Source: an uncultured virus (IMG/VR IMGVR_UViG_3300034418_006598) (taxonomy: Duplodnaviria; Heunggongvirae; Uroviricota; Caudoviricetes). From it: DNA of 64,000 nt. The notes under the pieces were generated by a model. The model saw only the letters and a list, made by a program, of their open reading frames with translations, had not been told where the DNA came from and did no database searches. The DNA lies in the IMG/VR virus record IMGVR_UViG_3300034418_006598. One strand, given 5' to 3'. How positions within the stretch are numbered: the stretch's first letter is position 1; each line of letters starts with the position of its first letter. Positions 12,442 to 59,812 of the stretch are shown piece by piece. The position numbers and the translations under genes are program-made.

Positions 12442-15400
12442 ATGGCTAGGAAACCTCGTGTTGTACCTTTTGTGCCGTTTCCTCGTGACGGTGACCTTGA
12501 TGGTCTTGTTCAGGATGGAACGATTTGGGAGCGCCCTAAAGGGGCGTATTTGCGCTTTATTGATACGGGTGAGATTTGGAGCGAGTACGGTCAGGTTGAT
12601 CGTGGTCGTGTAGAGTTTGTTCGTGCTGACGGGTCTGTTTGGGATTTTACGCCGTCGTTTAGAGATACTGATTCTACTACGTTGGGTGGATCTTTGGGGA
12701 CGTTGGCTGATGATTCGCCTTCGCTTTTGGAGTCTCAGGGCATTTTGCCTCGTGGGGTTTTGGGGCCGTCGTTGGCTGAGTCGGCTCGTTTTGATGATGC
12801 GGTTGATGATGTGGATGTAGTGGATGTGTCAACTGATAAAGGTTCCGCTGCCCTTGCCGCTTTTCGTCCGAAGATTGAGTACCTTTTATCGGATGAAGCT
12901 GTTGAAAGTGGTTTAATAACTCAAGCGTCTCAAGATCGGCTACGGGGTTTAAATAATATTCCTGTTAAGCGGGCAGCTGCAATAGATATTGCGGAGCGTC
13001 GTAACCGCATCACACTGTTTCAGTACATGGAAGAGCGGTTACACGGCAAGCCTACGGGCCGAAGCGGGGAGTCTCCTTCTTACCGCTATGCGAACTTTAC
13101 TTTGGGTGAAAGTATGGCTGCTATGCTTCGTGATGGCGATAGACAATCTATTAGCCGTTTTCGTTCTCGCTTAAAGTTTTTAGAAGATGAAGCACGCAGA
13201 CGGAGGCGATCTGTAGCAGACATGATCGAGACAGTTGACGAGGATGACGTTCGGTTCTTACAAGCGATGGCCGCTGCGTTGCCTGTGACGACTTGGCACG
13301 ATCATCATATAAAAGAATTAATTAATGCTTATGCTGCTGATGATTTTGATAAGGTTCGTTACCATGCTGATTGGTTAGATAGGAATACAGCTTCTACGGG
13401 CAGCACTGAAACCCATTTGGGTCTTGCAAACCAGCTGCAGTACATGGCTGATAATCCCGAATTGATAGATAGGCTATTTTTACAGAATGCCGGATTTAAA
13501 GATTACGAATATTATACAGGCCATGCTTTTAGGCGTCGTAGCGATAGTATTGGTCAGACGGTAGCTAGCGCAAAGTCGGATTTAGCTGCACGGCGTGCTG
13601 ATGAGGCTACTGAGCTTAGTTCTACTTTGGGGATAATTCCTGAGAATCGGTTAGTTGAACGTGCCGGTGAGTTAAGTGGACAGTATCAGAATTTTGATGT
13701 TATTAGTCAGGTTTTGAGAGACATTGAAACAGGTGAGATTGCAATTCAGAGACTTGAGGCTGACGGCGAACATCCATTAGCTTCTCAGCTTCGTGAACGT
13801 TTAGCTGAGTTGAAAACTGAGCTTAAAGAAGTTACTAAGCCACAAGATATCAAAGTCGTGTTTACGGAGGAAACCCTGAAAGATAAAAAAATGCAGGGCA
13901 TTTTACGTTTCATTCCTGGCGGTGCAGAGAATGAAGATTTGTTGCGTAAAATTAGAAAGTCTACAGATGGTCTAAGTCCTGAGTATCGTCCAACAGAACT
14001 TCGTATTGAACTGCTTGATGACAATAAAATTGGTGGTACGTTTAATTCTGCAACTGGCGTGTTAGTCCTCACTCCGCAAATGTTGGGCTTAGATGAGCAT
14101 TTAGTTATTGATCGGAAAGCCGGTACCATTAAGAGGTTTAATCCTGATGATGGGCCTGATGGTGTAGATATTCCTTTGGGGTTAAAGAGTTTAGCTACGC
14201 TTGGAAGGTTGCGTAATGATTTTCAGGAGGTGGGCTTATCTGAAACACCTCTAGACCAAGTTGCTGTGCATGAAGCGGTTCACCGGATTGATTCTTTGTT
14301 GGCTGCAGATGCTTTCTTTAGAGAGAAGATACGTCTTGAGGGCGAGATCGAAAATATTCAGAAACAGATAGACGATCCTGAGAATGCTCGTAGAGTTACT
14401 ATTTTAACAGAGACGTTAAGTCGTAGGCAAGAAGCTCTTCGTGAGCTTGACAGACAAGAAAGAAATGGTGATTACATTTTTAGAAATGATTCACCTATTC
14501 GTCAAGCTCCCCAACAGTGGATAAGTGAAAATAGGCCGTGGCTTGAGACTTACAATAGAGATTTTGAATTACGGACGAGGAGCACTGACCATGCTTACGT
14601 ATCTTCTATTTTGGGTTATACGCCTAATGATTATATTCAAATAAAGTATGGTGTCTCACAAAACACTCCCGGCTTAGATCCGTTACTCAAGAGGCGGATG
14701 GAGCGGACTGAAAGCATGGAAGTTTTAGCGGAAGTAATTTCGGCTCACGTTACAGGAAGGCGAAGAATTCCGGCAGGTACAGACGGAGAAGAAAGCAATC
14801 TTCCTCAGATGTTTGACAAGTATTCGAAGCAGATTATTCCTGAGGAGCTTAAGTTTATTTTGACGGACCGTGACTGGTCTGAAGACGACCTTCCTCCTTT
14901 GACTGCTTTGGCAGGTAGACAAGAAGCAGATACTGCCTACTCCACTTACGAAGCCCGTCGAGTGGTGAGGGATGTAGATCAGGGGAAGCAGCGTGGCAGC
15001 TTGCTTCCTAGGGTTGCGAGTGATCCTTCAGCCACGTCTCAAATGCTTTCTGATGCCGAGTCGGAAGATCGGAAGAATAGAATTCTTGGCGAGTTAGCTC
15101 AGGCACAGGTAGACGAACCTGAGTTGTTTAGAGATGGTGTTCTTGTAGATAAGGTGTGGGCACCGTTCTCTCCTCCTCCGCATCTTGCTGGTTCTGGTTT
15201 GCGTGATGAGTTGGCTGAGGCGACTTCGTGGAGAGAGGTGTCGCAGCTTCTTAAGGGTAAGCGTGTGGTGGTTTTTGATACGGAGACTGCTGGGCGTATG
15301 GATCCGGATGAGGTTGATGAGGACCGTATTGTTCAGTTGGGTGGCGTGGTTTATGTTGATGGTGTGATTGTTGATCGTTTCTCCATGTATGTGAATGTGG

Positions 15401-18294
15401 AGTATGATGAGTTGTCTGATTGGTCTCAAGCGAATTTGATTGATGCTGATGGTAAGCCTATGTCTCCGGAGTTTTTGGCGAAGCAGCCTGATATGCCTAC
15501 GGTGTTGCAGGAGTTTATGCGTTTTGCTAATGGCGATTCTGATGGTTCTGATGTGGTGTTTATGGCGCATAATGCTGCGTTTGATTTGAAGCGTATGGAG
15601 TTGGAGCGTCAGCGTCATGATCCTGATGGTGTGCCGTCGTTTGATTTGGATGAGGTGACGTATTTTGACACGATGGGTTTGGGCAATATTGCTAAGCGTG
15701 CTGGGGTTGAGGATGGTCCGGGTAGTGCTTCGTTGAAGAAGTTGCAGGAGTTTTTCGGGTTGGAGGATTTCTCGTGGCATACGGCTGATGCTGATTCGGA
15801 GATGACGGGTCAGGTGTTGTGGCGTTTGTTGGATTATATGGATGAGAATGATGTGCCGTTGGATGGTCTTGATCCTGTTGCGGGGTTGGAGCGTCAGCGT
15901 GAAGAGTTTGCCGAGTATGAGGGTAAGATTCCTGAGTTTTTGCGGCAGAAGGAGCGTTTGGCTGAGTTGCGTGGTTTGTCTGATCAGTTGCGTTCTGATC
16001 GGGATGATGCTGTTTCTGAAATGATTGATGATTTGGATGATGCTGAGGATGAAGTGGCTTCGGTTATGGCCCGGTCGGTTGATGATATCGTTCCAGAGTC
16101 TACGGAGATTCCTGGGGGAGGTGTTGTCGAAACTGATGATGGCGGTTTTTGGGTGCCTGGGCCTCCTCCTGTCGGCTATACTGAAGAGGGGAAGGTAACA
16201 TGGGAGCGTGGTGTTGAATTATTGAGAGAGCGTCCTGAGTTGTTTAAGACGCAAGTTATTGCTGATGATGGTTTACCCGTGCCTAGAGATGAGCGACCCG
16301 GCCTTGCTGATATTGGATCAGTTTACGATGCCCTGCCATCGGATGACGCTGATGCGGCTATGACAGTTAGGCGTGAAATCGAAAAGGCTTGGCAAGCTGA
16401 AATCACTCGGGCTATCGTACTAAATAAGATTGACATAGGTAACCCTAGAGAGGTTTGGGGTACTGAAAATGATGAGAGGTCGGAGGCGTGGCAGCGGTAT
16501 GGTTATTCCGCTAGGGCTGAGAGAGGCATGTGGGAAAACCTTCCACAAGGATTGTTACATGTAACTACAGGTTTGAGTGGTTTGCAAGATGGAGGGTTTA
16601 AAACTCGTGCCCAGTTAAGAGACGAATCAGGTGAAGTTCCTGCAGGGTTGGGCGGCGGCGTATCCGACGCTATTAGCTTTACGACTGACCCGTTGGTTGC
16701 GGATTCGATCGTTCGTGGTATTCATGAAATGCGTGAAGCTGTCCGTGACGATACGGGGCCAGCTGCCGTGGAGCGAATGAAGTCGGAGATCGCTGCCTGG
16801 ACTAAGAGCATGCCAGAAAATGAGAGAAAGAGACTTTTATCAGCTACGCCGTCTACGATGGAAGAGCGTGGAGATTTCTATAGAGAATATTCGTATTGGC
16901 GGCAGTACAATGTTCCGAACCGTCCCGACCCTCTGTTTTGGACTCCTAATTATCAGGCGTACGCTGATCTTGACCCTAATGAAGTTGGTGTCGTTACGGT
17001 GAATCCGTCAGTTGACGGGGCACGCGGTTGGCAGGTTTCGGGAATGGGCGAGTGGCGTACTATTCCTGAAGCTGTAGAAATTGTTCAAAGCGAAGCTCGT
17101 CCCACGATTGTGGATGATATGACTGCCACGCTTGATGAGTTGGATACGGTTCGTTCGTCTGCGCCAGATTTTGGGCTTCCTCCAGGGCCTGAAAAACTGA
17201 CGGGTTGGGATAAAGATCGTTTGACTGGCTCTTCTGTTCCAGATATTCATGAAGGAAAGCCTCGTCCTGTGGCTGATGTTGTGGATGGTGTGCATTTAAG
17301 GGAAGATCAGAAAGCATTAAAAACGGTGGTGGCGGAATTGTCTACTGAGGATGATTTGTTGCCGTTGCAGAAAAAGCTAGAGGAAGCGTTTGAGCTTGGT
17401 GGTTCTCTTTCTGGTAAACAACGTACTGATGCAACGTATGAAATTTTTGCTGCAATAAATGATTTAATTACTTCACGTCAACGAGATACTACTGGTTTTA
17501 CTCCTTCACAAATGAGAGAGTATGAAAAAGAAGTGACTGAGAATGAAGCATGGGTGGGGAGTCGGATTGCTAAAGCTATTCAAATCCATTGGGGTGAAGC
17601 GCGAAGTGAAGTGTTCCATTGGGACTTCTTATCTGAACGTGTTAAAACAGTTTTGGGAGAAGAGTTTGATATTGATGTTTCTCATGAACCCTCAGAGATT
17701 GATGCCGGTATAGAAGAAATTTTTGAAATTCAAGAACTTCTGACACCGTTTATTGATGCTTGGGTTAGAGGTCAGTATTCCACAACACAGAAATACTTGG
17801 AAGATGCGGGTATTACTGAACTTAGTGTGTTTAGAGGTACTTACATCCCGAATGTTGTTGGGGATGACGACGGGCTTCCTAGTGGACGTGAACCATCTGT
17901 GACTCGCGGTTTGGAGTCGTGGAGTACCGACATAGGGATTGCTTTGGGGTTTGCTGGCAATAAGTATGGTACTGCTGACGATAGGATAGAACAGATGGCA
18001 GAGGTTGGTGAACTGGGTGAGCCTACCCACGTTCTTCAGCATGATGTGGTTCCTGCTCAACTTATTATGGGTATCGGATATCTTGATAATCCTCGTATTA
18101 CTACTGGTTCTTTAGGTCAGGGTGAAGAATCTGAGATTGTTGTGTTAGGTAGCTCTAGACCTGTTAACTGGTTATCAAATGATCTTTTGAAGCCGTGGAG
18201 ATCGGAGCGTCCTGAAGGCGGCTATAATTTCAACATTAAGGAAGCAGCAGTGTTTGCTTATTTAAGTACGGGCTTGTGGCCTAGATTTTCTTGA
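12442..18294 (+). CDS. 1950-aa polyvalent protein: DGDxDG repeat, zincin-like HExxH, DEDDh 3'-5' exonuclease, two ADP-ribosyltransferase-like domains
   Basis: RDGDLDGLVQDGTIWERP; VAVHEAVH; VVFDTETAG/MAHNAAFD/WHTADAD; LLHVTT..AISFTTD..GEWR; VFRG..LESWSTD..EESEIVV. Confidence 0.7.
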   Translation: MARKPRVVPFVPFPRDGDLDGLVQDGTIWERPKGAYLRFIDTGEIWSEYGQVDRGRVEFVRADGSVWDFTPSFRDTDSTTLGGSLGTLADDSPSLLESQGILPRGVLGPSLAESARFDDAVDDVDVVDVSTDKGSAALAAFRPKIEYLLSDEAVESGLITQASQDRLRGLNNIPVKRAAAIDIAERRNRITLFQYMEERLHGKPTGRSGESPSYRYANFTLGESMAAMLRDGDRQSISRFRSRLKFLEDEARRRRRSVADMIETVDEDDVRFLQAMAAALPVTTWHDHHIKELINAYAADDFDKVRYHADWLDRNTASTGSTETHLGLANQLQYMADNPELIDRLFLQNAGFKDYEYYTGHAFRRRSDSIGQTVASAKSDLAARRADEATELSSTLGIIPENRLVERAGELSGQYQNFDVISQVLRDIETGEIAIQRLEADGEHPLASQLRERLAELKTELKEVTKPQDIKVVFTEETLKDKKMQGILRFIPGGAENEDLLRKIRKSTDGLSPEYRPTELRIELLDDNKIGGTFNSATGVLVLTPQMLGLDEHLVIDRKAGTIKRFNPDDGPDGVDIPLGLKSLATLGRLRNDFQEVGLSETPLDQVAVHEAVHRIDSLLAADAFFREKIRLEGEIENIQKQIDDPENARRVTILTETLSRRQEALRELDRQERNGDYIFRNDSPIRQAPQQWISENRPWLETYNRDFELRTRSTDHAYVSSILGYTPNDYIQIKYGVSQNTPGLDPLLKRRMERTESMEVLAEVISAHVTGRRRIPAGTDGEESNLPQMFDKYSKQIIPEELKFILTDRDWSEDDLPPLTALAGRQEADTAYSTYEARRVVRDVDQGKQRGSLLPRVASDPSATSQMLSDAESEDRKNRILGELAQAQVDEPELFRDGVLVDKVWAPFSPPPHLAGSGLRDELAEATSWREVSQLLKGKRVVVFDTETAGRMDPDEVDEDRIVQLGGVVYVDGVIVDRFSMYVNVEYDELSDWSQANLIDADGKPMSPEFLAKQPDMPTVLQEFMRFANGDSDGSDVVFMAHNAAFDLKRMELERQRHDPDGVPSFDLDEVTYFDTMGLGNIAKRAGVEDGPGSASLKKLQEFFGLEDFSWHTADADSEMTGQVLWRLLDYMDENDVPLDGLDPVAGLERQREEFAEYEGKIPEFLRQKERLAELRGLSDQLRSDRDDAVSEMIDDLDDAEDEVASVMARSVDDIVPESTEIPGGGVVETDDGGFWVPGPPPVGYTEEGKVTWERGVELLRERPELFKTQVIADDGLPVPRDERPGLADIGSVYDALPSDDADAAMTVRREIEKAWQAEITRAIVLNKIDIGNPREVWGTENDERSEAWQRYGYSARAERGMWENLPQGLLHVTTGLSGLQDGGFKTRAQLRDESGEVPAGLGGGVSDAISFTTDPLVADSIVRGIHEMREAVRDDTGPAAVERMKSEIAAWTKSMPENERKRLLSATPSTMEERGDFYREYSYWRQYNVPNRPDPLFWTPNYQAYADLDPNEVGVVTVNPSVDGARGWQVSGMGEWRTIPEAVEIVQSEARPTIVDDMTATLDELDTVRSSAPDFGLPPGPEKLTGWDKDRLTGSSVPDIHEGKPRPVADVVDGVHLREDQKALKTVVAELSTEDDLLPLQKKLEEAFELGGSLSGKQRTDATYEIFAAINDLITSRQRDTTGFTPSQMREYEKEVTENEAWVGSRIAKAIQIHWGEARSEVFHWDFLSERVKTVLGEEFDIDVSHEPSEIDAGIEEIFEIQELLTPFIDAWVRGQYSTTQKYLEDAGITELSVFRGTYIPNVVGDDDGLPSGREPSVTRGLESWSTDIGIALGFAGNKYGTADDRIEQMAEVGELGEPTHVLQHDVVPAQLIMGIGYLDNPRITTGSLGQGEESEIVVLGSSRPVNWLSNDLLKPWRSERPEGGYNFNIKEAAVFAYLSTGLWPRFS

Positions 18295-38652: not shown

Positions 38653-38726
38653 GCCCCCGTATTCCAATTGGCAGAGAAAGGGCGCTTAAAACGCCTACAG
38701 TGTGGGTTCGAGTCCCACCGGGGGTA
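38653..38726 (+). tRNA. tRNA-Leu(UAA), short variable loop, CCA not encoded
   Basis: Acceptor GCCCCCG/CGGGGGT; anticodon arm GGGCG-CTTAAAA-CGCCT; T arm GTGGG-TTCGAGT-CCCAC. Confidence 0.9.
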
Positions 38727-38728
38727 CT

Positions 38729-52237: not shown

Positions 52238-52977
52238 ATATAGAGTTTCCGCTAGGGCGGTGGTCAGGCATCGGAATTTACGACGATGTTGTAGACAAGG
52301 CCGCATGTCAGAACATTATTGATCTAGTCGAACGTCATTGGAACCGACTAGAAGAAATGCAAGTTCTGAACCCCGGTAAAATGGTCGGTGGGGTGGATCA
52401 ATCTATCAAAAACTCAACTGACATGAACATCTCTGCCGCAATGGGAGACGAACTGTACTCCATGGGAGGAGGCTGGTCTGAACAAGACATTCACGCCGGA
52501 CTGGTAAAGTGCGTTAACCATTACGTCAACCAGTACCCAGGGCTAAGCCAGCAGTGCTTCCCATTACAAGACATGGGTTACCAGTTTCAAAAATACGATG
52601 TTGGCCACGGCAAGTACGACGAACATATCGACGGTGGGCCGTTCGGCAGTTCATTTGACAGAATGCTGGCTGTCATTGTTTACCTTAACGACGTTGACGA
52701 AGGTGGAGAAACTACCTTCACCCGTCAGGAGCTTTCCGTTAAGCCCGTAGCAGGGAGGGTGCTTATTTTTCCGTGTCACTGGCTGTACCCCCACCGTGGT
52801 GAGATTTCGTTTGATAAAGACAAGTACATAGTCACCACGTTTATCATGCAGGAAGACATGAATCATTTGGTTCATCGTCCTGATGAGATGCAAGAGCATT
52901 TCCACGATCACTTCAATGAAGAGGACCTTCCTAACTACCACGGCCCCGGCCACCATCACGATCACGAGCATGAGTGA
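52234..52977 (+). CDS. 2OG-Fe(II) oxygenase (prolyl 4-hydroxylase-like) with His-rich tail
   Basis: YDEHID, RMLAVIVYLNDVDEGGET.F, VKP.AGRVLIFP, YPHRG, KYIVT. Confidence 0.88.
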   Translation: MNIEFPLGRWSGIGIYDDVVDKAACQNIIDLVERHWNRLEEMQVLNPGKMVGGVDQSIKNSTDMNISAAMGDELYSMGGGWSEQDIHAGLVKCVNHYVNQYPGLSQQCFPLQDMGYQFQKYDVGHGKYDEHIDGGPFGSSFDRMLAVIVYLNDVDEGGETTFTRQELSVKPVAGRVLIFPCHWLYPHRGEISFDKDKYIVTTFIMQEDMNHLVHRPDEMQEHFHDHFNEEDLPNYHGPGHHHDHEHE

Positions 52978-53521
52978 AAAAGATTTTAAGTTTCTACAAT
53001 GGGCAGATCAGGGAGCCAAGCTTTTCTCTACCTGTTCTAAAAGCCAGTACATGGCTATCATTGTTGACTCTGAAGGTTTTGTTCTTGGCGTAGGCTACAA
53101 CGGTTCTCCTCGGGGCGCTGCTCATTGCAATCAAGGCGCATGTCCTCGTGCTCTTGCAGGAAGCGATCATAAGTCATCTGACTACAGTGACTGCATCGCT
53201 GTTCACGCTGAAGCTAATGCGTTGCTCCACAGCGACTTTAACGCCCGTGCCCGCATGGGCGGTGTTGCGATGTATGTGAATGGAGAGCCTTGCCTTGAGT
53301 GCGCTAAGCTTATTGCGAACAGCGGCGTCAGGATTGTGTATGGTATTCGGGAAAACCGTCCGGCGCTTTCTAAGGTCGAGGAAGTGTTTGTTGCGTCTAG
53401 CATTGATTTGATTCTGTATGATAGGGATGAAGTTATGCCGGTACATGATACAACTAAGAAGTATTTTGATTCGCATTCATTAAGCCGTTGGAAAGAGTGG
53501 CCCAAAGTAGGTAAGTCTTGA
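52970..53521 (+). CDS. dCMP deaminase family protein
   Basis: STCSK, GYNGSPRG, VHAEANA, PCLECAKLI. Confidence 0.88.
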   Translation: MSEKDFKFLQWADQGAKLFSTCSKSQYMAIIVDSEGFVLGVGYNGSPRGAAHCNQGACPRALAGSDHKSSDYSDCIAVHAEANALLHSDFNARARMGGVAMYVNGEPCLECAKLIANSGVRIVYGIRENRPALSKVEEVFVASSIDLILYDRDEVMPVHDTTKKYFDSHSLSRWKEWPKVGKS

Positions 53522-53945: not shown

Positions 53946-54113
53946 ATGCCTGACTGGTGGGATAGTTTACCTGAAGAAATGCTGGGTGAACGTCCCGCTA
54001 TTAAGCTGGTTTCTAAACAAGTCGAAACCCCAAAAGAAGTTGAGGTAAAAGAATCAGGACGCAAAGATGAAGGCTTTTTCTCAAAAGTTTACGGATCACC
54101 CGAAGTCAAATAA
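53946..54113 (+). CDS. small hypothetical protein
   Basis: MPDWWDSLPEEMLGERPAIKLV..., 55 aa, starts right after trxA stop. Confidence 0.45.
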   Translation: MPDWWDSLPEEMLGERPAIKLVSKQVETPKEVEVKESGRKDEGFFSKVYGSPEVK

Positions 54114-54273
54114 AATGACATACGGCGATCATTTCTTGTTCGCCGCAGGTTTTGCTGTAGAGTTTATTGTGATTGGCTTTATGCTGCTTATCCACGCCGT
54201 GTTCCCGTTCTGGTTTAAGAATGATGCGTCAGAGTTTGCCGAGTACGCTAACGAGGTGTTGAACAAGCACTAG
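54067..54273 (+). CDS. small membrane protein (DUF6356-like)
   Basis: FTDHP...MTY.DHF.FA...LIHAVFPFWF...AS. Confidence 0.7.
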   Translation: MKAFSQKFTDHPKSNKMTYGDHFLFAAGFAVEFIVIGFMLLIHAVFPFWFKNDASEFAEYANEVLNKH

Positions 54274-54275
54274 TC

Positions 54276-54304
54276 TTGACGTGCCTATGTGCGTGTGCTA
54301 AAAT
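54276..54304 (+). promoter_or_regulatory. sigma70-type promoter (leaderless)
   Basis: TTGACG-17nt-TAAAAT, 6 nt before ATG 54311. Confidence 0.75.
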
Positions 54305-54310
54305 GACGGT

Positions 54311-54403
54311 ATGAATCACTGGCACGCTTTTGGAATCGGTTGCGCTATCGGAATCATTATTCTGATGACGTGGCTGCTCAACACTGACGGGGACTGGGAA
54401 TGA
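54311..54403 (+). CDS. 30-aa single-TM microprotein
   Basis: MNHWHAFGIGCAIGIIILMTWLLNTDGDWE directly behind the promoter. Confidence 0.55.
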   Translation: MNHWHAFGIGCAIGIIILMTWLLNTDGDWE

Positions 54404-54412
54404 AGGAGCATC

Positions 54413-54664
54413 ATGGACGATAACACTGTAGTTAAACTTTTAAATGAGATTCGTTATGCTCAGGTAGTGTCTGGAGTTCACGCTGATGCAATATGTGAAG
54501 CAATCAAGATCATTTCTGATGCTAACGCTATCTGCATTACAGACGGTTCAGGTAAAGAAATTGCTGTAATTGACGGCGATCTTGCTGATGCAATTATTAA
54601 GCAAAGTGTTACCCGTTTCATTACGGATGCTTTAGAGAATCTTATTGAGCATTACAGTGAGTAA
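54413..54664 (+). CDS. hypothetical protein
   Basis: AAGGAG RBS. Confidence 0.65.
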   Translation: MDDNTVVKLLNEIRYAQVVSGVHADAICEAIKIISDANAICITDGSGKEIAVIDGDLADAIIKQSVTRFITDALENLIEHYSE

Positions 54665-55031
54665 TACGGCGAGGACAATTGCTGTCGCCACTGCCGAAAA
54701 GTCTGATCATGATAAGTGGCGTCTAGGCTCTGTTGTATGGAGAGGCGGTTCTGTGCTTTCCACGGGTTTTAATCGTGTGAAGAACGATCCTTCCGTTGTG
54801 GAGGACTCTAAGCATTTCCATTGTTCTATTCATGCTGAAGCGGATGCTTTGCGGAATGCTGGTGATACTCGGGGTGCTAGGTTGTTTGTTGCTCGTGTTA
54901 CTCGGAGCGGCAATTTGGCGCTTGCTAAGCCTTGTTCTCGTTGCATGGAAGCGATTAGGGAGCATGGAATCAAGAGGGTTTACTACACTGATGAGAATGG
55001 TGAGTGGACGTTCTTTAGAGTCTGGCCTTGA
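54657..55031 (+). CDS. second Zn-dependent cytidine/deoxycytidylate deaminase-fold protein
   Basis: LSTGFN, SIHAEADAL, AKPCSRC, GIKRVYYT. Confidence 0.85.
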   Translation: MSNTARTIAVATAEKSDHDKWRLGSVVWRGGSVLSTGFNRVKNDPSVVEDSKHFHCSIHAEADALRNAGDTRGARLFVARVTRSGNLALAKPCSRCMEAIREHGIKRVYYTDENGEWTFFRVWP

Positions 55032-55056
55032 CACACTGCGCCGAGGCTGGTATAAT
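55028..55056 (+). promoter_or_regulatory. consensus sigma70-type promoter driving the ORF-ribozyme-ncRNA unit
   Basis: TTGACA-17nt-TATAAT with TG extension. Confidence 0.85.
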
Positions 55057-55086
55057 ACCCACAGTCAACGATAAACAAAGGAGATT

Positions 55087-55374
55087 ATGTTGATTACGAA
55101 GAAGGCAATTATTCAGGCGGCTACTGAGGTTGCGGAGCGTGCCCCGACGGCCCGTAACCGTTCCTCGAAGATGGTGACGTATCGTCATCCTCGTGGCCTT
55201 ATCGGTAATGCGCTGCACGCTGCCGGTATGTCGCCCCGTGAGATTCGTTCTCTGCAGGGCAACCGTAAGTACGATCGTTTCCTGAACCCGGCAGCTACCG
55301 CTTGGGTCCGTGAGGCGAACAGCCGTGCCAACAAGGGCATGGCGTGGGGCGAGGTTGTCGGTACCACCCGATGA
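55087..55374 (+). CDS. basic hypothetical protein upstream of pistol ribozyme
   Basis: AAGGAG RBS; 95 aa, R/K/A-rich. Confidence 0.75.
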   Translation: MLITKKAIIQAATEVAERAPTARNRSSKMVTYRHPRGLIGNALHAAGMSPREIRSLQGNRKYDRFLNPAATAWVREANSRANKGMAWGEVVGTTR

Positions 55375-55380
55375 TCGTAC

Positions 55381-55446
55381 CGTCGTCTGAGCGACGTTAA
55401 ATAGGCTTTAGGCTCAGAGCGTTCCCCACTTCGGTGGGGAGGTGGC
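55381..55446 (+). ncRNA. pistol self-cleaving ribozyme
   Basis: P1 CGTCG/CGACG; loop TCTGAG pseudoknots with CTCAGA; conserved TTAAATAG, TTAGG and GCG; P3 TTCCCCAC-TTCG-GTGGGGAG; G|T cleavage dinucleotide 55442/55443; P2 GCT/GGC. Confidence 0.9.
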
Positions 55447-55615
55447 GTTGAGGCGGGTGGATGGCAGTTCACACCGTAAGACTTTGCCAGTCTTTTCTCT
55501 GGAGGCTGTACGGCTTAGCATTATGACCACTACATGCGTACAAGTGTAGTGGACGTGGAGCAGCTAGTCCCACGGCAAGTGTGAAGGGGTCGCCCCCCAA
55601 CTAGCACCTATCTCC
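55444..55615 (+). ncRNA. multi-stem structured RNA with two potential pseudoknots, raiA-motif-like
   Basis: Closing helix 55450-59/55605-14; TTCACAC/GTGTGAA; CGTA/TACG; AAGAC/GTCTT; CCACTACA/TGTAGTGG; CGTGG/CCACG; GGGG/CCCC; pseudoknots TGGCAG-TTGCCA and GCTAGT-ACTAGC. Confidence 0.6.
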
Positions 55616-55630
55616 GTTACACTTCGTAAC

Positions 55631-55723
55631 ATGTCTGCGTCGATGGCTGACGGCTTGCTGAGTATCAATGTAGAGAAGGTTATTCCGGAAGAGCAGCAGC
55701 CGATTGAGATCGAGATCTCGTAA
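55631..55723 (+). pseudogene. Hsp20 (small heat-shock protein) C-terminal remnant
   Basis: MSASMADGLLSINVEKVIPEEQQPIEIEIS matches the A-x-x-x-DGLL-x-I...PE...I-x-I C-terminus of IbpA/Hsp20. Confidence 0.65.
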
Positions 55724-55740
55724 GTAGAATCAGTATATAC

Positions 55741-55887
55741 ATGAAGAAGTTTAAGAAGTGGCTACGTAAGCTACGTTACGGCGAAGACCCGTTTGAGGGA
55801 TATACATTCTCGCAACCGTTCATCGGTTTGATTACTCAGCCTCCCGGCGAGTACGTCAAGCCACTACCAAAGGATAGAAATGACTGA
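55741..55887 (+). CDS. small hypothetical protein
   Basis: MKKFKKWLRKLRYGEDPF..., 48 aa. Confidence 0.45.
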   Translation: MKKFKKWLRKLRYGEDPFEGYTFSQPFIGLITQPPGEYVKPLPKDRND

Positions 55888-56047
55888 TTCAACTATGGAT
55901 GTCACCGACTTTATCTCTCAAATTGAGGATATGTTGAAGCAGGTTGCGGGCCACACTGTGGTTTCAGCCGCCGATATGCAGAACGGGCTGCTCGATTTGA
56001 TGCAGTCGGCCCGTTCGCTGACCCTATCGTCGGATGAGGAACTGTAA
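55880..56047 (+). CDS. small hypothetical protein
   Basis: AAGGA RBS; MTDSTMDVTDFISQIEDML..., 55 aa. Confidence 0.55.
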   Translation: MTDSTMDVTDFISQIEDMLKQVAGHTVVSAADMQNGLLDLMQSARSLTLSSDEEL

Positions 56048-56050
56048 TTT

Positions 56051-56347
56051 ATGAGGCAATTCTTACGTTACTTCTTACGATGGCAGCTATCCACACCTGT
56101 GCTGCTGTTGTTTATTGCTGTTTACCCTGGCAACATACTGATGAAGGTAGCGTTAGCTAACCTTTTGGTGTCGTTATTGGACTATTTTTCCCGTAAAAGT
56201 ATGAGGCAGCAGAGCAATTCAGGGTTCATGAAAGCCCGCCGAGGCGACGATTTCATCCCCTATACGCTCAGAACTTCCATGCGGAACAAGGCTAAGCGGT
56301 TTAAATTTACCCGTAAATTCCCTATCGAAAGACGAAAAAAGACATGA
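56051..56347 (+). CDS. small membrane protein
   Basis: RYFLRWQLSTPVLLLF hydrophobic N-terminus. Confidence 0.45.
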   Translation: MRQFLRYFLRWQLSTPVLLLFIAVYPGNILMKVALANLLVSLLDYFSRKSMRQQSNSGFMKARRGDDFIPYTLRTSMRNKAKRFKFTRKFPIERRKKT

Positions 56348-56526
56348 TTCTAGTCACCGTCATGCTATCGTTGATCGCATCCGCCATCATTGCTAACGTT
56401 TGGCTGGTTCGGCAGCTAGAAAAAGACCTCTCAGAATGGAATAGAACCTTCCAAGAGAGGCTTGCTCGGCTGGATGAAACATGGGAACAGATCGAAGAAA
56501 AGACCTACTCAATGGACCAAATTTGA
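56344..56526 (+). CDS. TM-anchored small protein
   Basis: ATGA coupling; N-terminal TM plus coiled coil. Confidence 0.55.
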   Translation: MILVTVMLSLIASAIIANVWLVRQLEKDLSEWNRTFQERLARLDETWEQIEEKTYSMDQI

Positions 56527-56874
56527 GGATTTAACTAGTGGCTAAACGTCGTAAAAATACTAACCATGTTTGTAAAGTTCCGCCCGGAACAGAGTGTGTG
56601 GGAGGTAAACTTTACGACAAAGAGAAGAGAAAAGCGAGGCCCCTATGTCCGTGCGGATGCCATCTTCCCCCGGGTACCAAAAAACCAACATGAAGACAAT
56701 TAAGTTAGAAACAAGACCGTCTCGTCCGGTGTGGAAAGAGCGTACCCTGTGGGGTACGGCGGCGGCAGTATTCATGATTTTAAGCATCAAACCCACGTAT
56801 AAAGCTCTACGGAGCGGCTACTACCATATGACCGAAACCAGAAATTTCATCAGAACAGTAGGTAACACCCCCCG

Positions 56875-57144
56875 ATGATTTACGAATTCACTGCCGGAGA
56901 CAACTACTGGTACATAGATACCGACCGCAAATACGTCAAAATTACAGACAAAACCGACGGAACGATCATCAAAGAAACCGACCAGTTAGGGTTGCTAGCC
57001 CAAATTGAGGGCGCTAGAATAGCTGCATATGAGGGCACATACGGCCTGATCGGTATCTCGGCCCCCATCGTAGATAACCATTTCTTCATAGAAGACTGCC
57101 ATACTCGTATCATTTGGCAAGAACCCGAGAAAGCAAACACATGA
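56875..57144 (+). CDS. hypothetical protein
   Basis: 89-aa ORF coupled to neighbours. Confidence 0.55.
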   Translation: MIYEFTAGDNYWYIDTDRKYVKITDKTDGTIIKETDQLGLLAQIEGARIAAYEGTYGLIGISAPIVDNHFFIEDCHTRIIWQEPEKANT

Positions 57145-57527
57145 GTAGTTACTCGCACGAACAGCACCAGCTTACCCTAGACTACGACGCTCACAAACTA
57201 GCCCGCTCCACCGACCCAGAAACGTCAAAGGCTGCGGCTCAGTCCATTTCGCTAGAACTAAAAGACAGCCACCGTTGGATTCTCAACTGGCTTACGGATC
57301 ACGGCCCAGCCACCGACGACGAGATCGCACTCGCAGCAGTAGACGCAGGTCTCATGCCCCGCACCGAGACAGCACGAAGGCAAGTCCGAACCCTACGTGA
57401 AAAACACGAACTTATCGTCCCTGCAGTCGATGAAACCACAGGAACCCAGCTCACATTCGTCAACGCCTCCGGCAGACAAGCTCTCGCCTGGACAGCAAAG
57501 GAGCATAACCATGCTAAGCATTCATGA
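57141..57527 (+). CDS. putative winged-helix DNA-binding protein
   Basis: ARSTDPETSKAAA, ILNWL.DHGPATDDEI, TARRQVRTL, NASGRQA..W. Confidence 0.7.
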   Translation: MSSYSHEQHQLTLDYDAHKLARSTDPETSKAAAQSISLELKDSHRWILNWLTDHGPATDDEIALAAVDAGLMPRTETARRQVRTLREKHELIVPAVDETTGTQLTFVNASGRQALAWTAKEHNHAKHS

Positions 57528-57819
57528 ACCACACGAACTACCCCTCGAATACGAACCCGACAACGCCATCGTAACCATCAGCCTTAGCCGGGAACAGATG
57601 GAAAAGTTTGCTAAAACCGAACTCAAAAGGAACAGTCCAGACTCCGCCACCTACCGCTGGCTACTCACCGAAGCCACCCCCGAAGACCGAGAAAAGATCG
57701 AAAAACTCGTACAAGAAGAGATATGGACCCTCCTCACACAAGGACTAAGCGACTTAGACGACCTCCTCTGCGGACTCTACGAAGCCTACGTCCAAGCCCA
57801 CCTATCCTCAAGAAAGTAA
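57511..57819 (+). CDS. hypothetical protein
   Basis: AAGGAG RBS before ATG 57511. Confidence 0.6.
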   Translation: MLSIHEPHELPLEYEPDNAIVTISLSREQMEKFAKTELKRNSPDSATYRWLLTEATPEDREKIEKLVQEEIWTLLTQGLSDLDDLLCGLYEAYVQAHLSSRK

Positions 57820-57909
57820 ACAACCCACCCCGAATAAACGACCGCTAAACACCTCCACGATACAAAAACCCACCAAAGCACCCATTTACACTATACAGAA
57901 ACACTCGAT

Positions 57910-57996
57910 ATGGACCCTGTAGTAAAAGCATACACACTCGTATTCGGTGCAATCGTCCTCATGATGCTGATAGACCTAACCCTACGAGACCGGTAA
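57910..57996 (+). CDS. 28-aa single-TM microprotein
   Basis: MDPVVKAYTLVFGAIVLMMLIDLTLRDR. Confidence 0.4.
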   Translation: MDPVVKAYTLVFGAIVLMMLIDLTLRDR

Positions 57997-58084
57997 CCAC
58001 TTGACACACCCCCCAAACCCAAACTAAACTAACAACCAAAGAGCCTACTAATACTACCCCACCAACAGTATAAGAAAGGCCAAA

Positions 58085-58468
58085 ATGCGAAACCCCCTCC
58101 ACCACCTAACCAAAACCCACACAACCGATACACAACCACACCACCCCCAACCAGACACACAAACACCCCCCAAAAACACCCCAAAACCCCACTGGACCAA
58201 CCAAGCAAACTGCCGAAACAAAACACATCTCATGTTCCCCAAAGAACACAAAGACCTCTCCTACATTAGTGAGGCACGACGTTTATGCAGGGCGTGTCCG
58301 GTCCGTAGGGAGTGTTTGGAGTATGCGTTGGAGTTTCCGGTTTCGGATCAGCATGGTGTGTGGGCTGGGTTGACTCCTAGGCAGTTGGCTGCGGAGGGTC
58401 AGAGGCGTGGGGTTCGTGCGGAGCGGTTTACGTTGGCTCAGGTTTGGTCTCGTTTGTATCGGCAATAG
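58085..58468 (+). CDS. whiB: WhiB family Fe-S transcription factor
   Basis: W..QANC...MFP...ARRLCRACPVRRECLEYAL...HGVWAGLTPRQ; GAAAGG RBS. Confidence 0.92.
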   Translation: MRNPLHHLTKTHTTDTQPHHPQPDTQTPPKNTPKPHWTNQANCRNKTHLMFPKEHKDLSYISEARRLCRACPVRRECLEYALEFPVSDQHGVWAGLTPRQLAAEGQRRGVRAERFTLAQVWSRLYRQ

Positions 58469-59735: not shown

Positions 59736-59812
59736 TGGTGGGGCAGGTGAGGCTTGAACTCACTTTCTCCGCCGTATAAGGACGGTGCATTTACCCGTTA
59801 TGCTTCTGCCCC
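59736..59812 (-). tRNA. tRNA-Ile(UAU), CCA encoded
   Basis: Minus strand reads GGGGCAG-AA-GCAT...ATGC-A-CCGTC-CTTATAC-GGCGG-AGAAA-GTGAG-TTCAAGC-CTCAC-CTGCCCC-A-CCA. Confidence 0.85.

Follow-up and report, generated by a model that had tools for sequence, protein, structure and literature searches.

A pistol ribozyme behind a conserved small gene in an uncultured freshwater phage of probable actinobacterial host

A pistol ribozyme was found, with near certainty, at positions 55381–55447 of a 64,000-nucleotide stretch of an uncultured virus (IMG/VR record IMGVR_UViG_3300034418_006598), the whole of which is referred to below as the window. It follows a conserved gene for a 95-residue protein (ORF95) and precedes a structured RNA, while in sister phages the site behind this gene carries either a pistol or a terminator-like hairpin. 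There is, on our estimate from these comparisons, an even chance that the ribozyme acts as a read-through cut boundary that sets a conserved cassette of promoter and gene apart from exchangeable cargo. The class and this kind of setting were already known, and what is added here is a comparative picture at one orthologous site. The coordinates of the features are given in Table 1.

Table 1. Features of the ribozyme locus, with positions counted along the window.
Feature	Position	Strand	Sequence or remark
Sigma-70-type promoter-like site	55028–55056	+	TTGACA-17-TATAAT with upstream TG; 12/12 hexamer matches; consensus match only
ORF95	55087–55374	+	Conserved 95-aa basic protein; stop TGA 55372–74
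Pistol P1	55381–85 / 55392–96	+	CGUCG / CGACG; from sequence and model alignment
Pistol pseudoknot	55386–91 / 55413–18	+	UCUGAG / CUCAGA; 6/6 pairs; P1 loop with P2–P3 junction
Pistol linker	55397–55403, then G55404	+	UUAAAUA
Pistol P2	55405–07 / 55444–46	+	GCU / GGC; G55405–C55446, C55406–G55445, U55407–G55444 (U-G pair)
Pistol conserved motif	55408–12	+	UUAGG
Pistol core G-C-G	G55419, C55420, G55421	+	
Pistol P3	55422–55441	+	UUCCCCAC-UUCG-GUGGGGAG; UUCG-capped
Pistol GU junction	G55442, U55443	+	2 nt between P3 end (55441) and P2 3′ strand (55444)
Predicted scissile bond	G55442/U55443	+	Model positions 63–64; corresponds to G53–U54 of the env25 pistol
Conserved structured non-coding RNA	55443–55630	+	~188 nt; begins at the predicted pistol cut
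Possible 30-aa ORF	55631–55723	+	Directly after the RNA, ATG 55631; putative, read from sequence

When the 64-kb window was searched on both strands with cmscan against 4227 Rfam families, the Pistol model (RF02679) matched over its full length (model positions 1–68 of 68) with 73.1 bits against a gathering threshold of 34.5 (E 2e-11), and the E-value was 6.3e-13 when the 2-kb neighbourhood (54500–56500) was searched. This was the single ribozyme match in the window, the other two gathering-level matches being tRNAs. The significant score bore out the original prediction of a pistol, and every element named there (P1, pseudoknot, linker, UUAGG, GCG, P3 and GU) was recovered in its place; the predicted start at 55381 was kept, while the predicted end at 55446 proved to be one base short of the model end at 55447. 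The fourth P2 pair of the model, G55404/G55447, is a mismatch here and was marked as such by cmscan. All well-conserved (upper-case) consensus positions were matched with the exception of model position 17, where U replaces A.

The length of the junction between P3 and P2 has been described as strictly conserved in pistols (Harris 2015, PMC4604425), and the scissile bond given in Table 1 follows the cleavage-site position reported for the class (Harris 2015, PMC4604425; Lee and Lee 2017, PMC6154101). For the env25 pistol, G40 is described as the general base and purine 32 (A or G) as lying at the active site, which is supported by a G33–C41 pair and by G42, with the cut between G53 and U54 (PMC6154101). 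Transfer of the Rfam alignment onto the env25 numbering of PMC6154101 suggests G55419, C55420 and G55421 as the equivalents of G40, C41 and G42, with G55412 in place of G33 and G55411 in place of purine 32. The folding z of the 67-nt ribozyme was −1.82, a value that is not significant alone and that comes from nested folding, which cannot show P1 and the pseudoknot together. The nearest record (G001) carries a pistol identical to that of the window. Taken as a whole, the pistol is canonical and probably active, and it is quite likely to cleave in vivo.

The conservation of the fold was followed in 28 distinct copies, drawn from 22 IMG/VR loci found with an exact pattern of the window pistol 5′ half, GenBank copies and ORF95 loci; having been chosen by likeness to the window, they describe a subclass and not all pistols. 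The helices were parsed by anchored rules in which the P3 end that best fits P2 is taken, and a permutation control was included for this reason. Four copies with a long P3 (L010, L023, L025 and L041; loci are given here as L numbers) were probably parsed wrongly. Ten compact pistols were also aligned with MAFFT, but the 3′ strands of P3 came out misaligned and no pair counts were taken from that alignment. The pseudoknot forms 6/6 pairs in 28/28 copies, and P1 forms four or five of its five pairs in all 28. P2 forms 3/3 pairs in 18/28, whereas 200 permutations of the P2 5′ strands, run through the same parser, gave 8.7 such copies on average and 15 at most, which indicates that P2 covaries in the subclass; its fourth pair forms in 14/28. 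It had been predicted from the sequence that P2 is only 3 bp long and includes a G-U pair. Such a helix (GCU/GGC) is indeed present, but to judge from these counts a 3-bp P2 is the norm of the subclass and no peculiarity of the window copy, whose three pairs stand at the weak end of the subclass range. Altered helices that still pair, a sign of selection on the fold, were also seen in single loci. In L036 three pseudoknot pairs are altered on both strands (UCUGAG/CUCAGA to UCAUGG/CCAUGA), in L035 the P3 differs in sequence and yet pairs (CUCCGAC/GUCGGAG) and P2 is GCU/AGU, and the P2 of L017 is GCU/AGC.

A different P2 was found in copies of the L038 and L041 types and in L069, all of which are followed by the same downstream RNA as the window pistol. 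Here AAC lies opposite GGC with 1/3 pairs in register, the linker has one extra U, and the Rfam score is 53.8 bits. Either P2 is dispensable or shifted in these copies, or the copies are impaired. The AAC could pair instead with GUU three bases further on, which would lengthen the junction that PMC4604425 describes as strictly conserved; if the copies are impaired, processing of the downstream RNA would be independent of the ribozyme in those phages. The unpaired P2 of these relatives, along with the short and mismatched P2 of the window, could be read as signs of an inactive relic that still resembles a pistol. It is extremely improbable that the window copy is such a relic, given that its score is among the highest of the copies scored, that a single upper-case consensus position is unmatched, and that compensatory changes maintain the helices in the sister phages.

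Further structure was observed in several members of the subclass. In nine of the 28 pistols (L007, L009, L011, L012, L014, L015, L016, L020 and L024) a small conserved hairpin lies directly after P2, examples being CUGUG-AAGGAUAA-CACAG and CGGAG-AAGGUA-CUCCG; AACUU comes next in several and an ATG follows 10–15 nt later in some. As judged by eye, the loop AAGG of this hairpin could pair with the CUU tail as a pseudoknot. Many members of the subclass have long P3 insertions, with lengths between 38 and about 190 nt, and the P3 of L012 contains an 82-nt insertion with GGGGUUCGAUUCCCAC, resembling a tRNA T-arm. At L017 (1563–1713) the pistol is followed by a spacer of ~150 nt ending in a terminator-like hairpin and T-run directly before a tRNA gene, and this spacer may represent a discrete small RNA between ribozyme and terminator.

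The window derives from a large, uncultured, tailed freshwater phage with a probable actinobacterial host. Nearly all of its ORFs lie on the plus strand, and PHROGs matches were obtained for a major head protein, tail sheath, tail fibres, ribonucleotide reductase, DNA polymerase, a sigma factor and a WhiB-like regulator. The WhiB gene lies at 58085–58468 (Pfam PF02467, 60.1 bits), and near the ribozyme Pfam further matched two dCMP-deaminase-like genes and thioredoxin. In tblastn the capsid protein came closest to Brevibacterium and Gordonia phages (46–48% identity), and the DNA polymerase to Thermobifida, Streptomyces and Mycobacterium phages. The WhiB gene, the proximity of capsid and polymerase to those of actinophages, and a pistol 5′ half that is nearest to actinophage copies all agree with the earlier proposal of a probable actinobacterial phage. 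Two contigs of 100.5 and 121.9 kb encode an identical ORF95 protein and carry an identical stretch behind ORF95, and the phage genome is therefore longer than 100 kb. The stretch was found in many freshwater metagenome runs, and megablast of 54000–58000 against GenBank phages returned zero matches.

The window contains only two tRNA genes, tRNA-Leu(UAA) at 38653–38727 (+) and tRNA-Ile(UAU) at 59736–59812 (−), and is without the tRNA clusters (Lys, Ser, Trp or Tyr, Arg, Thr) that occur around ORF95 in sister phages. The dCMP-deaminase-like genes lie at 52970–53521 and 54645–55031, 1.1 kb apart. Comparison with L035 indicates that the first of them most likely starts at ATG 52970, overlapping the end of a 2OG-Fe(II) oxygenase gene, and in sister phages this deaminase is found relocated directly behind the pistol. 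It should also be noted that a 1950-aa ORF at 12442–18294 (+) has a DNA polymerase exonuclease subunit as its sole PHROG match, covering residues 938–1137.

Upstream of the ribozyme, ORF95 was assigned to phrog_572 (unknown function, E 6.7e-7) and gave zero matches against Pfam. Among its relatives (n=7) the protein is 85–96% identical and the surrounding DNA 81–92%. The Shine-Dalgarno sequence and the promoter-like site are kept in relatives, the latter as TATAAT, TATACT or TAAGAT, with L031 scoring 12/12. In the window 6 nt separate the ORF95 stop codon from the pistol, in all nine pistol-bearing variants the pistol starts 7 nt past that codon, and the pistol is on the same strand as every flanking gene. 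No terminator-like site was called by the scan between the promoter-like site and the pistol, or up to the next genes. In four RNA-library contig sets, low-depth contigs were found on 55089–55390 and 55634–55999 and none on 55391–55633; being assembled, they are uninformative on RNA ends, and DNA carry-over is possible. Minus-strand ORFs at 55185–55472 and 55469–55600, which overlap ORF95 and the structured RNA, were considered as genes and are disfavoured by the G-U pairs of the plus strand and by the conservation of the ORF95 protein.

To compare the site behind ORF95, 16 IMG/VR loci and 20 metagenome-contig loci were collected, several of which represent the same contigs twice. After exclusion of L075, which is cut off inside ORF95, the 35 usable loci gave 18 distinct 200-nt downstream sequences; since the relatives were found through ORF95 or the window pistol sequence, this sample is biased to the present lineage. 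A pistol follows ORF95 in 9/18 of the distinct sequences, and in the other 9/18 its place is taken by a terminator-like hairpin (GGGCUAYCCG). Three kinds of cargo lie behind the pistol, namely the structured RNA (four distinct sequences, with L038–L042 and L069 retaining it), a dCMP-deaminase gene (four) and, in L036, a 172-nt spacer followed by tRNA-Ser and tRNA-Trp (one). A gathering-level Rfam pistol was obtained in eight of the 13 loci scanned and in none of L030–L034. The terminator scan scored the hairpin of L031 as an intrinsic terminator (19 pairs, T-run); a clear T-run was seen by eye in about five of the nine hairpin sequences, and in the rest a tRNA-Ser lies within about 15 nt. In sister phages tRNA genes also occur 0.2 to 1 kb behind the pistol, whereas the window lacks any tRNA gene for 2.5 kb around ORF95, as judged from L027, whose sequence is the same in this region.

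Homology to the window ends at 55443 in L006, L013 and L035 and at 55449 in L036, that is, at the ribozyme 3′ edge. Together with the observation that, within 2.2 kb around the locus, the pistol 5′ half is the sole stretch matching any GenBank phage, this could indicate that the pistol serves chiefly as a landmark for recombination or hitch-hikes, the invariant 5′ half of ~40 nt, common to phages that are otherwise unrelated, promoting module exchange and the border position being a consequence. Such a role is rated as very improbable: the catalytic core explains the invariance, the breaks fall at the 3′ edge and not within the conserved half, and the compensatory changes point to selection on the fold itself.

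Past 55443, a dCMP-deaminase gene follows in L006 and L013, with its ATG 4 nt beyond the cut. L035, L037, L058, L067 and L068 carry the sequence GGAGG-U-AGU-AUG, which is the true deaminase start, the N-terminus in those loci matching the window copy at 52970. Leaderless translation is frequent in Actinobacteria. A ribozyme that mainly shapes the 5′ end of downstream messages would suit these loci, since it would leave a nearly leaderless transcript with a 5′-hydroxyl and would also remove the upstream RNA, including the GGAGG of the P3 3′ strand; in the window it would have been inherited before a different cargo. This reading is considered rather unlikely. The first plausible start codon of the window (55631) lies 188 nt past the cut with a conserved structured RNA in between, so that the leaderless layout is absent here, and a 4-nt leader with a 5′-OH is an unproven substrate for leaderless initiation.

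The structured RNA itself recurs in part (55444–55605) in L038–L042 at 78.5–82.8% identity, and homology to it extends to 55629 in L069, while an unrelated module in L035 matches the window only from 55632. From these homology limits the RNA is taken to extend from the cut as its left border to 55630 as its right border. Beyond the module boundary at 55631, positions 55632–55924 are 99% identical in L035, where they lie behind the tRNA cluster, and small plus-strand ORFs follow the possible ORF listed in Table 1. RNAalifold analysis of four variants gave 49 pairs, and compensatory changes were seen at six. A 9-bp hairpin at 55527–55552, whose loop ends in an invariant CGUACAA, holds four of the six, and a hairpin at 55555–55574 holds the other two; a terminal hairpin closes the RNA at 55616–55630. 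The compensatory changes indicate that the downstream RNA is under structural selection. Many G-U pairs occur on the plus strand, as fits a plus-strand RNA, the indels among the variants break any reading frame, and 55443–55630 is without a plausible ORF. Folding z was −1.08 for 55375–55745 and −1.66 for 55443–55631, neither being significant alone.

In the scan of 54500–56500, no Rfam family was detected within 55448–55740 at E up to 5. A tRNA remnant was considered, and none was shown by ARAGORN or the E-value Rfam scan. No further copies of the RNA were recovered by nhmmer among the collected loci or with a custom covariance model (R1) in 26 sources; the sequences covered included the spacers that follow the pistol in L017, L036, GTE7, Count and Pippin15. 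When IMG/VR was scanned for exact 18-nt words, 13 loci came up, five of them new contigs, and all five were chance matches within coding sequence. The terminator scan called nothing at the putative 3′ end of the RNA. Within it, a hairpin (AAGACU-UUGCC-AGUCUU) followed by UUCUCU at 55478–55500 is invariant in 4/4 RNA variants and falls below a call by the terminator scan. In L038, L041 and L069 a TGnTATAAT-like sequence was seen by eye after the structured RNA, which suggests that the unit following it there has its own promoter.

The original prediction also held that the downstream RNA could tune activity by way of the short P2. In such a switch, the weak 3-bp P2 would compete with a downstream-RNA helix that uses 55443–55445, and the outcome would set the fraction cut. 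RNAalifold does pair U55443 with A55610, G55444 with U55609 and G55445 with C55608, and L070 and L072 have a longer complementarity (GGUGGC/GCUACC) spanning the scissile bond. Pistols cleave with rate constants near 10 per minute (Harris 2015, PMC4604425), and by estimate cutting would thus be slow enough for the downstream RNA to be synthesised first. The competing helix of the window has, however, three pairs and zero compensatory change, a 3-bp P2 is the rule in the subclass whatever lies downstream, and the competitor strand would be made about 165 nt later than P2. The proposed tuning was not upheld by these results, and a switch of this kind is given a small chance.

For the preferred reading, that of a read-through cut boundary, the following course of events can be proposed. 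A transcript started at the promoter-like site would read ORF95 first and run on through the pistol, which would fold P1, pseudoknot, P2 and P3 and cut by internal transesterification, with G55419 as general base in keeping with other pistols. The ORF95 message would then end in a compact, pseudoknotted ribozyme body with a 2′,3′-cyclic phosphate, a 3′ end comparable to the terminator hairpin found at the same spot in sister phages and one that may have consequences for RNA stability. The RNA behind the cut would be released with a 5′-hydroxyl, and in the window this would be the 188-nt structured RNA. A ribosome terminating at the ORF95 stop codon would presumably cover the first bases of P1, so translation could delay folding.

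It can be suggested, more tentatively and with the balance somewhat against it, that pistols serve in general as portable substitutes for terminators at phage module borders which allow read-through, any cargo recombined behind the promoter-plus-gene cassette being transcribed from its promoter and yet released as a separate 5′-hydroxyl RNA. In the present lineage the cargo consists of a structured RNA, of a deaminase message with almost no leader, or of a spacer with tRNA genes, and the ribozyme body would stay on the upstream message as a protective 3′ cap. If true, this would also provide a general natural function for the pistol class, to which no biological role is assigned in the available text of PMC4604425 or PMC6154101. 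Pistol chemistry has been well studied, and the locus offers nothing new in that respect. It offers a natural comparison, in which either a pistol or a terminator-like hairpin closes the same cassette, and this turns the question of pistol function into concrete predictions on RNA ends and stability. Similar unannotated pistols are present in cultured Gordonia and Microbacterium phages, where these predictions can be tested.

Pistols have been described as often lying near phage genes and as prevalent in Firmicutes and environmental DNA (PMC4604425, PMC6154101). The window pistol shares with the class (RF02679) its P1, 6-bp pseudoknot, P2, P3, 2-nt GU junction, G-C-G core, purine 32 and association with phage genes; it differs in its probable actinobacterial host, as opposed to the Firmicutes named in those descriptions, and in a P2 of three pairs and a mismatch. 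No paper linking pistols to actinobacteriophages or Actinobacteria was found in a full-text search, subscription papers and supplements being outside its scope, and the documented hosts of pistol-bearing phages are here extended to Actinobacteria. By blastn, the pistol 5′ half was detected in 36 GenBank phage records (26 Bacillus, five Gordonia, four Curtobacterium and one Microbacterium), with 92–95% identity in the Gordonia, Microbacterium and Curtobacterium phages and 85–88% in the Bacillus phages, and none of the 36 has a ribozyme annotated under the match. Like that of the window, the GenBank phage pistols begin at, next to or inside an upstream stop codon on the same strand and are followed by a gene-free stretch. 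Those of Gordonia phage GTE7, Microbacterium phage Count and Curtobacterium phage Pippin15 differ in having P3 arms of 38 to 139 nt and unrelated neighbours; their Rfam scores (48.1, 45.9 and 51.0 bits, respectively) are lower because the model misaligns P3. In Count (L003, 2500–2509) the stop codon TGA of an NrdH-like glutaredoxin gene lies within the pistol P1 loop, in the pseudoknot strand, and in Pippin15 (L004, 2500) P1 begins with the final A of the stop codon, an arrangement in which translation termination and ribozyme folding would overlap.

Theta (HDV-like) ribozymes adjoin phage tRNAs and have been proposed to stand in for protein RNases when RNA is matured (Kienbeck et al. 2024, PMC10879173). 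They resemble the window pistol in being small self-cleaving phage ribozymes that border a structured RNA, but they belong to another ribozyme class and cut tRNA 3′ ends, whereas the window pistol would generate the 5′ terminus of an RNA other than a tRNA. Intrinsic (Rho-independent) terminators, for their part, share with the window pistol the position behind ORF95, as seen in nine sister sequences, and the provision of a structured 3′ end to the upstream message. They differ in that transcription would continue past the ribozyme, so that the downstream RNA is made, and in that the 3′ end left by the ribozyme would bear a cyclic phosphate.
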